A stretch of 64,000 bases of DNA from sequence record OP688485. The stretch is one strand, 5' to 3'. Made by a program: the position numbers and the translations under genes. Positions 3,679-3,925 of this stretch are shown here, piece after piece. Position 1 is the stretch's first letter; each line of letters opens with the position of its first letter. The DNA comes from Escherichia phage EP_H11. A model generated the notes under the pieces. The model saw nothing but the letters and a program-made list of their open reading frames with translations, ran no database searches and was not told the origin of the DNA.

Positions 3679-3925
3679 CCTTAGTGGGGACTGATGCGAA
3701 CTACACTAAGGTTTATACCCTCTCAACACCTTTAGGGGCATCTACGTAGTATACCTTGCGTCACGCGTAGGGTGAGCGAGTTAAAGCCCAAAGTGGCTTT
3801 AGGGAGCGAATCCCAGGGGGAGGCTCGGGTGGGCAAGGTCAGACTCTCCGGAGGAGTTTAGTCTCGTGTACGCGGCGGCTGGCAGAGCCGCCGCTACACT
3901 CCAATTGGTTAAATTAGATAAGGGG
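3679..3925 (+). ncRNA. candidate structured RNA element, copy A
   Basis: Lies in a 530-bp ORF-free gap; shares blocks (AAAGCCCRAAGTGGCTTT hairpin, GGCTCGGGTGG, GC-rich hairpin) with 53933..54133. Confidence 0.3.

Follow-up and report, generated by a model that had tools for sequence, protein, structure and literature searches.

A predicted structured RNA domain in two diverged copies in the genome of Escherichia phage EP_H11

What are the two stretches lacking an open reading frame (ORF) that lie 50 kb apart in the genome of Escherichia phage EP_H11 and share the same ordered sequence blocks? Both are found in a window of 64,000 nucleotides (sequence record OP688485), here meaning the whole stretch of DNA that was analyzed. 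An earlier note, made from the letters of the window, had proposed that the two stretches, copy A and copy B, are a functional RNA fold and not a remnant of a protein-coding gene. From sequence comparison, we conclude that the loci are paralogs, each a copy of the same predicted structured RNA domain of ~170–180 nt, and that the element is very probably an RNA structure maintained by selection. It represents a previously undescribed RNA family from a rare lineage of phages; its general kind, that of phage leader and non-coding RNAs, is a familiar one.

The two conserved cores are found on the + strand at 3734–3899 (copy A, 166 nt; matched by the covariance models R1 and R2 at 3731–3909, in agreement with the alignments) and at 53935–54113 (copy B; covariance model matches at 53932–54111). 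They are ~65% identical in a pairwise alignment, with insertions and deletions of 1–2 nt, and the core of copy A has a G+C content of 60% vs ~44% for the genome. R1, built from copy-A sequences only, detects copy B with 72.7 bits (E=1.7e-20) and the B copies of three relatives at 60–66 bits, with no further match in 154 kb; R2 scores copy B at 155.9 bits, and by this model neither the window nor the remaining 48 kb of the related phage IME392 contains a third copy. Similarly, the pattern AAAGCC-N6-GGCTTT-N10-30-GGCTCGGGTGG has exactly two matches in the window and none in any of 100 shuffles. The blocks listed in the earlier note (CGCGTAG, AAAGCC-C(A/G)AAGT-GGCTTT, GGCTCGGGTGG and a GC-rich hairpin) are indeed present in this order at both loci, and the similarity recovered by alignment and RNAalifold extends beyond short chance matches and includes co-varying stems. 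The boundaries of the earlier note (3679–3925 and 53933–54133) had to be redrawn to those of the homologous cores. Its first block was out of register, since GGGGACT of copy B (53936) aligns with AGGGGCAT (AGGGGCAU as RNA) at 3734 of copy A and not with the GGGGACT at 3686, and its common ending AATTGG..ATAA(A)GG is not conserved, copy B of IME392 reading GACTGTTTAAATCAAATGG at this place. The 5´ end of the core is invariant in all five sequence types described below, as AGGGG (3734–3738 in copy A) followed by GUAG (3746–3749).

Standard collections hold only two genomes of the lineage. The product of ORF 54280–55071 (263 amino acids) is 100% identical to WBU87766.1 of EP_H11, and the phage collection has a single relative, Escherichia phage vB_EcoM_IME392 (IME392), with an identity of 97.9% over the gap that holds copy A and 94.2% over the copy-B region, both of which lack annotation in its record. 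Additional variants were obtained from public assemblies by looking up the exact 77-amino acid protein encoded 3´ of copy A and a helicase relative encoded near copy B. Seven more loci for copy A and two more for copy B were recovered in this manner, most with few base differences. Two sets are informative, L029 for copy A and L024/L025 for copy B, the latter with several clustered changes; adding copy B of IME392 brings the number of sequence types to five. In L029 (a contig from SRR13089957), a strongly divergent patch of ~90 nt (3764–3856) is embedded in flanks that are 100% identical, and has evidently arisen by recombination with a third type of the element that has not been sampled.

The alignment used for analysis of covariation comprises 13 sequences in nine distinct rows, representing ~5 independent types, and 43 modeled pairs. 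In this model-fitted alignment, 98.1% of the cells are paired and 24 of the 43 pairs have changed on both sides. Sliding the 3´ partners by 1–3 columns leaves only 1–3 pairs with changes on both sides and 32–46% of the cells paired, and none of 500 shuffles attain the values observed. RNAalifold, given this alignment with no structure supplied, returned the helices P1, P3, P5 and the inner part of P4 as well as the irregular arm, together with a closing helix of 3 bp, which is weak, and three invariant pairs between the junctions x and y. Minimum-energy folds of single sequences are mutually inconsistent. The possibility of a protein-coding gene or its remnant was rejected because the insertions and deletions are not multiples of three and all six frames of copy A contain stop codons. 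The only open frame in copy B, on the minus strand, is closed in copy A. Taken together, the 24 covarying pairs and the lack of a frame that is open in both copies bear out the proposal of a functional RNA fold.

In the predicted fold, a 7-bp long-range helix (P1) encloses the irregular arm, the P3 hairpin and a G-rich junction (y), and is followed by the hairpins P4 and P5. P1 is formed in copy A by ACCUUGC (3753–3759) and GCAAGGU (3833–3839), and in copy B, by alignment, by UGCCUGC (53956–53962) and GCAGGCA (54034–54040). The corresponding strands read GCCUAC/GUAGGC in L024 and GGUUAGU/ACUAACC in L029, such that six of the seven pairs change on both sides across the types, and in L024/L025 a single G>A change in the 5´ strand is compensated by C>U in its partner. 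The sequence following the 5´ strand is junction x (GUCACGCGUA, 3760–3769), which by sequence comparison includes the CGCGTAG block. Junction x can alternatively pair back onto 3752–3761 to form a local hairpin, which is G.U-rich and has 90.6% of its cells paired across the types. An early model of ours contained a local 5-bp hairpin, "P2" (UGCGU-CAC-GCGUA), which overlaps the 5´ strand of the better-supported P1 and was demoted to a possible alternative pairing. A pairing of CUUGCGUCACGCGUA with CAGGGGGAGG through many bulges, obtained by RNAalifold on four sequences, was also dropped in favor of P1.

The irregular arm (3770–3813 in copy A) begins with a short stem, S1 (GGGU/AUCC), followed by tandem G.A/A.G pairs, a 2-bp step (GC/GC), a 4x4 internal loop (GAGU/GGGA) and P3. 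The arm of copy B (53973–54014) has the same organization with S1 as GCA/UGC, tandem G.A pairs, the step AC/GU, the loop GAGG/GUGA, and P3 at 53984–54003. S1 is GAGCA/UGCUC in L029, the 2-bp step in the B copy of L024 is again GC/GC, and the consensus of the purine loop is GAGK/GNGA. Thus, P1, S1 and the 2-bp step are all kept in L029 despite replacement of the sequence by the patch, in which the outer stem of P4 is chimeric. By contrast to these variable helices, P3 (UAAAGCC-CAAAGU-GGCUUUA, 3782–3801) is unvarying, with all seven pairs identical in the nine distinct sequences. Across the copies it reads UAAAGCC-C(A/G)AAGU-GGCUUUA, that is, one loop base varies and the stem and the remaining loop are fixed. 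The G-rich junction y (CAGGGGGAGGCUCGGGUGG, 3814–3832; AGGGGUAGGCUCGGGUGGC, 54015–54033 in copy B) has four G-runs that are constant in every type, separated by linkers that vary (A/UA/ACU, CUC/CGUAC and U/UCU). The two junction strands are almost invariant and purine-rich, with the consensus sequences GU.NCGCGUA and AGGGG(N)AGGCUCGGGUGG. With four runs of at least two G, junction y could be suspected of forming a G-quadruplex; none was present in the minimum-energy fold computed with the quadruplex option of ViennaRNA.

P4 in copy A is AGACU-CUCC-GGA-GGAG-UUU-AGUCU (3841–3864) and in copy B is found at 54041–54061 with the inner part AUCC-GGUA-GGAU at 54045–54056. The inner closing pair is C-G in copy A vs A-U in copy B, and the center UCC-GG(U)A-GGA is shared, whereas the sequences of the outer stem are unlike. 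A likeness of P4 (UCCGGAGGA and UCCGGUAGGA) to the GGAA hairpin of signal recognition particle (SRP) RNA is taken as chance, as no SRP model matched. P5 is the GC-rich hairpin, GUGUA-C-GCGGCGGCU-GGCAG-AGCCGCCGC-UACAC in copy A (3866–3899) and GCGGAGGUCGCGCCGCC-CUGAA-GGCGGGCGCGACUCCUUCGC in copy B (54065–54106). In 9 of its 14 pairs, both bases differ between A and B, and the hairpin differs in sequence and keeps its pairing in both copies, as the earlier note had stated. The emphasis of that note on this hairpin was misplaced in one respect: P5 is the least informative helix, and the strongest covariation resides in the long-range helix and the arm, which had gone unnoticed. The loop of P5 (3881–3885 and 54082–54086) is found reverse-complemented among otherwise identical variants (GGCAG vs CUGCC/CCGCC and CUGAA vs UCCAG; loci L001, L028, L030, L033, L024 and L025). 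These are flips between the inverted arms at the level of DNA, and they show that the sequence of the loop is immaterial. P5 was also considered as a hairpin-plus-U terminator and rejected, since it is followed by UCCAAUUGG in copy A and UCUCUACUUUGAC in copy B with no U-run, and a terminator scan was negative. The phage does possess a canonical hairpin-plus-T terminator, at 62382–62407, and read-through of P5 is therefore expected.

Each core is preceded by a further predicted hairpin. Upstream of copy A, AACCUUAGUG and CACUAAGGUU flank a 17-nt loop with GGGGACU (3677–3713); this hairpin, a possible part of the RNA, is identical in nine contigs and lies outside the core. Upstream of copy B, UUGACGAGG and CCUCGUCAA flank a loop with AGUCCCU (53854–53887). 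GGGGACU is found at 3686–3692, in the loop upstream of copy A, and at 53936–53942, at the 5´ end of core B, and its complement AGUCCCU at 53871–53877, in the loop upstream of copy B. In copy B, these two sequences (53871–53877 and 53936–53942) could pair over 7 bp.

Is the domain a member of a known RNA family? A search of the whole window with the 4227 covariance models of Rfam 15 (Infernal) returned only tRNAs at or above the gathering threshold, such that the comparison with Rfam proposed earlier gave no family match. At E<=10 with permissive filters, 3300–4100 showed only noise from mir-242 (E=7.8), and 52300–54400 only tRNAs and noise. ARAGORN finds three tRNAs in the window, none of them in the element. 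A transfer-messenger RNA (tmRNA), suggested by a GGGGACUGAU-like start, was dismissed as ARAGORN found no tmRNA, none appeared at E<=10, and the GGGGACU at 3686 is placed in a hairpin loop outside the core. A boxA-like sequence, CCGCUCUUU, turned out to be the upstream half of the promoter motif D1 described below and is outside the element. There is no description of this RNA in the literature, where the papers that name EP_H11 or IME392 concern DNA modification and DNA polymerase.

The transcriptional context of the two copies is similar. The motif CCGCTCTTTT-N9-TCGAAAGGCTGTTAAAgTGT, referred to as D1, occurs in 12 copies, all on the + strand (2822, 4219, 6934, 8009, 50090, 51114, 51719, 51901, 53603, 55074, 56061 and 61268), usually about 10–25 nt ahead of GGAGG and ATG, and is, judged by these features, the presumptive promoter type of the phage itself. 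The copy at 53603–53649 has no ORF directly behind it. Instead, ~630 nt of non-coding sequence including copy B are followed by ORF 54280–55071, which has no D1 of its own, and this D1 is the presumed promoter for a transcript with copy B and then the ORF. Copy A is located in a gap of 529 bp (3460–3988), 3´ of two small ORFs whose promoter is the D1 at 2822–2868, the nearest promoter copy on that side, in accordance with the 530-bp gap with no promoter copy upstream described earlier. It is 5´ of a 77-amino acid ORF (3989–4222; 3975–4222 including its Shine-Dalgarno sequence GAGGAA), which also lacks a D1, the next one being at 4219. We infer that both copies are part of presumptive transcripts, each placed directly ahead of a promoter-less ORF. 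These ORFs are unrelated to each other, the one behind copy A having no family and the one behind copy B being glycosyltransferase-like (Pfam Gly_transf_sug, E=1.8e-4, just below the cut-off). Genes in the window are on the + strand at 1–12 kb and from 50 kb onwards and on the minus strand between, and the copies are thus co-oriented with the genes around them. The + strand is the probable sense of the element because of this gene direction, the placement of all 12 D1 motifs, the tandem G.A pairs and purine-rich junctions on this strand, and the G.U-rich nature of the alternative hairpin.

The tail of copy B contains what appears to be a relic. AUUAGAUAAAGAGGAAGACUAAUAAG (54190–54215) resembles the spacer, Shine-Dalgarno sequence and start of ORF 3989 behind copy A, with the AUG lost, and the decayed ribosome binding site and start read GAGGAAGACTAATAAG vs GAGGAACACTATTAATG of copy A. 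This suggests that the duplication spanned the start of the ORF and that only the RNA core was later preserved. Copy B is also followed by CCGCTCTTTC (54142–54151), which is the upstream half of the promoter motif on its own. In the other direction, a tRNA cluster (Gly, a tRNA-like gene, Arg, Met) ends 635 nt upstream of copy B. The tRNA-like gene (52534–52618, + strand) scores 52.1 bits with Rfam and was missed by ARAGORN. Its acceptor, D and T arms are normal, and a 32-nt extended stem-loop, CACAG-GAAAGCUUCGAGAGAACAAGGUGU-CUGUG, is found in place of the anticodon arm. Elsewhere in the window, ORF 61365–62375 has imperfect tandem repeats (GAAGATAAATCTGA-like units) at 62133–62317 that encode a low-complexity acidic and lysine-rich segment.

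How widely is the element distributed? Scans with three DNA patterns gave either 0 matches or 21 chance matches in G+C-rich coding DNA in IMG/VR, and DNA pattern scans gave a single chance match in the JGI metagenomes and two chance matches among 100,044 bacterial and archaeal genomes (one per species). The glycosyltransferase-like ORF belongs to the only cluster found at 90% identity, and relatives of the helicase at 78% and 53% identity, from the runs SRR10902858 and SRR15882663, are on contigs that end before the element. EP_H11 and IME392 have been assigned to an "RP13-like/YerA41-like" group, in which thymidine is probably hypermodified (PMC12686479; bioRxiv 10.1101/2025.03.26.645540). 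Judged by the helicase, the closest phages are Ralstonia phage RP13 (33% identity) and Acinetobacter phage Ab1-TPeters (36%). In the latter, a promoter-like motif (GCTGTTTAAAGTG), tRNA-Arg(tct), tRNA-Met(cat), a promoter-like motif, a structured non-coding stretch and an ORF follow each other in the same order as in the window. The GCTGTTTAAAGTG motif, which is related to D1, occurs in four copies in Ab1-TPeters, including ahead of the tRNAs. The non-coding stretch (L041 19790–20060) is ~73% identical to one in Acinetobacter phage vB_AbaM_3098 (L044 2480–2760), and the two have at least three hairpins with compensatory changes. The stretch is 3´ of tRNA genes, is annotated as several tiny hypothetical ORFs, and has no match in Rfam. 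At the syntenic spot, a y-like motif reads AGGGGAGUGCUCGGGAUGG in Ab1-TPeters and GGGUAGGCUCGGGAUUGG in vB_AbaM_3098, the former being the sole match to the junction motif in the 110 kb of Ab1-TPeters on both strands (p~1e-3 by a rough estimate). Homology was not recovered statistically, as the covariance model score of 9.2 bits is noise (T4 gives 8.8 bits) and nhmmer gave E>=6, and the local fold looks different. The Acinetobacter stretch may be a distant relative of the element and is regarded as a lead and not as a finding. A tmRNA is encoded in vB_AbaM_3098 ~2 kb upstream of the stretch (L044 236–553; Rfam beta_tmRNA, 88.9 bits; tmRNA_permuted, 108 bits), where the annotation has small hypothetical ORFs.

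What could such a domain do? The reading that we favor, to which we assign a probability of roughly 40%, is that it affects its own transcript in cis, as a platform for binding of a factor. The copies would be transcribed as part of mRNAs initiated at D1, copy B in the leader from 53603 and copy A after the two small ORFs transcribed from 2822. The invariant hairpin and the G-rich junction could then be recognized by a protein or by the transcribing polymerase, and this recognition would set the fate of the downstream message at the level of elongation or termination, processing or stability, or translation. Formation of P1 may compete with the local hairpin on the same 5´ strand. A cis role is suggested by the presence of exactly two copies per genome, both between a D1 promoter and a promoter-less ORF, and by the combination of an invariant hairpin with an invariant single-stranded box. 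The unrelated nature of the genes downstream of A and B fits a cis element that is independent of the gene it precedes. One bolder version, which we consider rather unlikely, is that the domain founds a new class of phage RNAs, which would target the transcription machinery from a leader or intercistronic position. The invariant hairpin and the junction with four G-runs would here capture the elongating polymerase or an accessory factor, with P1 vs the local hairpin as a switch. The annotation of IME392 includes RNA polymerase beta- and beta´-like genes, and the polymerase in question could be the multisubunit enzyme of the phage itself, operating on hypermodified DNA. If the weak link to the Acinetobacter stretch by motif and synteny is real, the class would span distant myoviruses of different hosts.

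Several observations weigh against the cis reading or the structure on which it is built. The covariation was counted in a model-fitted alignment and draws on only ~5 independent sequence types. Only 9 of 372 paired cells are G.U and the reverse strand is still 95.7% paired, so the pairs alone fix the strand weakly. The alternative local hairpin on the 5´ strand of P1 has only two covarying pairs. D1 promoters are frequent, hence there is no obvious long operon in need of antitermination, and the terminator scan found no downstream terminator for the element to override. Finally, copy B adjoins the tRNA cluster and the syntenic region in the Acinetobacter phages adjoins tRNAs and tmRNA, a pattern typical of stable RNA genes.

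This last observation leads to the strongest competing explanation, a stable non-coding RNA that acts in trans, which we consider almost as likely as the cis reading. The RNA would be cut from, or survive, a D1 transcript, be protected by P5, and serve as a scaffold or decoy for a host or phage protein as part of a stable-RNA island with the tRNAs. The placement of copy B 635 nt past the tRNA cluster, behind a promoter of its own with no ORF directly following, would be expected of such a gene, as would the shared order of promoter, tRNA, promoter, structured region and ORF in Ab1-TPeters and the tmRNA nearby in vB_AbaM_3098. The unvarying sequence of the P3 stem suggests sequence-specific recognition, and the decay of the duplicated ORF start behind copy B with retention of the RNA core, as well as the mutually unrelated downstream genes, also agree with a trans function. 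However, copy A does not neighbor an RNA gene and lacks its own promoter within 860 nt, neither copy is followed by a terminator, no processing signals were identified, and the homology with the Acinetobacter stretch is statistically unsupported (9.2 bits vs 8.8 bits for noise; nhmmer E>=6). A ligand-sensing riboswitch, with P1, the junctions and the arm as the aptamer and P4, P5 and the alternative hairpin as the expression platform, is improbable. It is prompted by a likeness to known aptamers in architecture, with a variable, covarying closing helix around highly conserved junction nucleotides, by the two mutually exclusive pairings of the 5´ strand of P1, and by the placement of copy B ahead of a glycosyltransferase-like gene in a phage thought to hypermodify thymidine (PMC12686479; bioRxiv 10.1101/2025.03.26.645540). 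Riboswitches of one aptamer type are expected to precede related genes, but the genes 3´ of the two copies and of the possible relatives in Acinetobacter phages (in the latter, an unrelated 131-amino acid ORF) do not form a coherent regulated set. In addition, no recognized expression platform, be it of the terminator type or one that sequesters the Shine-Dalgarno sequence, is conserved between A and B, and no riboswitch in Rfam matches.

Two further explanations were considered. The element could be associated with a replication origin, either as a G-rich RNA that forms a primer or R-loop in the manner of ColE1 RNA II or T4 oriF/oriG, or as a structured single-stranded DNA signal for initiation, in both cases followed by an A+T-rich stretch. 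Each copy is indeed past a promoter, is G-rich on the non-template strand and is followed by A+T-rich sequence (3945–3975 and 54205–54270); copy B heads a block of replication genes (helicase, RusA-like, 5´-3´ exonuclease, SbcC-like and topoisomerase); and the nearly exclusive use of Watson-Crick pairs is compatible with a DNA structure. The A+T-rich stretches are, however, ordinary regions of translation initiation for the ORFs that follow, iterons were not found, the GC skew simply tracks gene orientation, and tandem G.A pairs and a long-range helix around ~70 nt are typical of RNA and not of origin DNA, all of which makes an origin very unlikely. We give slightly less credence still to a neutral or selfish duplicate, a remnant of a mobile element or intron of no function for the phage. 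In its favor, there are two dispersed copies, and the patch in L029 and the flipped hairpin loops show active exchange at the DNA level. Yet all helices have been kept by compensatory change at ~65% identity and three blocks are invariant, whereas neutral decay would destroy the pairing, and neither terminal repeats nor target duplications nor intron cores were detected.

Phages of the EP_H11/IME392 type constitute a barely studied group in which transcription control is undescribed, and the element offers a concrete handle on how they are regulated or on a new interaction between RNA and protein. The domain is supported by covariation, has no catalogued relatives, heads two gene blocks in its two copies, and is small enough for direct tests. 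The analysis also illustrates that comparison of paralogs, combined with variants retrieved from raw assemblies in public archives, can establish the structure of an RNA when standard collections hold two genomes only.

Comparison with known systems places the element among several types of phage RNA. ROOL and GOLLD are likewise phage-borne, complex and G+C-rich folds of unknown function found beside tRNA genes, but they are 500–800 nt in length, their Rfam models have no match here at E<=10, and there is no sign of multimers here. The stable RNAs species 1 and 2 of T4 (rnaC and rnaD) are a parallel in being small phage RNAs of unknown function beside tRNA genes, with two related genes per genome. 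In contrast to these, copy A is outside the tRNA region, and the tRNA-like T-arm motif of rnaC (GGTTCGAATCC) is lacking in the element. R2, run with filters off on the tRNA region of T4, had no match on rnaC or rnaD, and its best scores of 7–9 bits fell inside coding genes. The cis-acting antitermination RNAs of lambdoid phages, putL and putR of HK022 (~70 nt) and nutL and nutR of lambda (~30 nt), differ from the element in size and sequence. The latter is ~170 nt with no sequence similarity to them, and has the long-range P1, the G.A arm, P4 and P5 in place of the two-stem fold of put or the boxA plus boxB of nut. No downstream terminators were identified in the present case, and the phage has multisubunit RNA polymerase-like proteins of its own, such that the partner could differ. 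The organization is nevertheless the one seen here. In both, two diverged copies per genome are found on the transcribed strand (the presumed one in EP_H11) downstream of the promoters of separate units, one in a leader and the other after the first small genes, with unrelated genes following; and in both, the structure can be deduced from compensatory differences between the paralogs and combines an invariant hairpin with an invariant single-stranded box.

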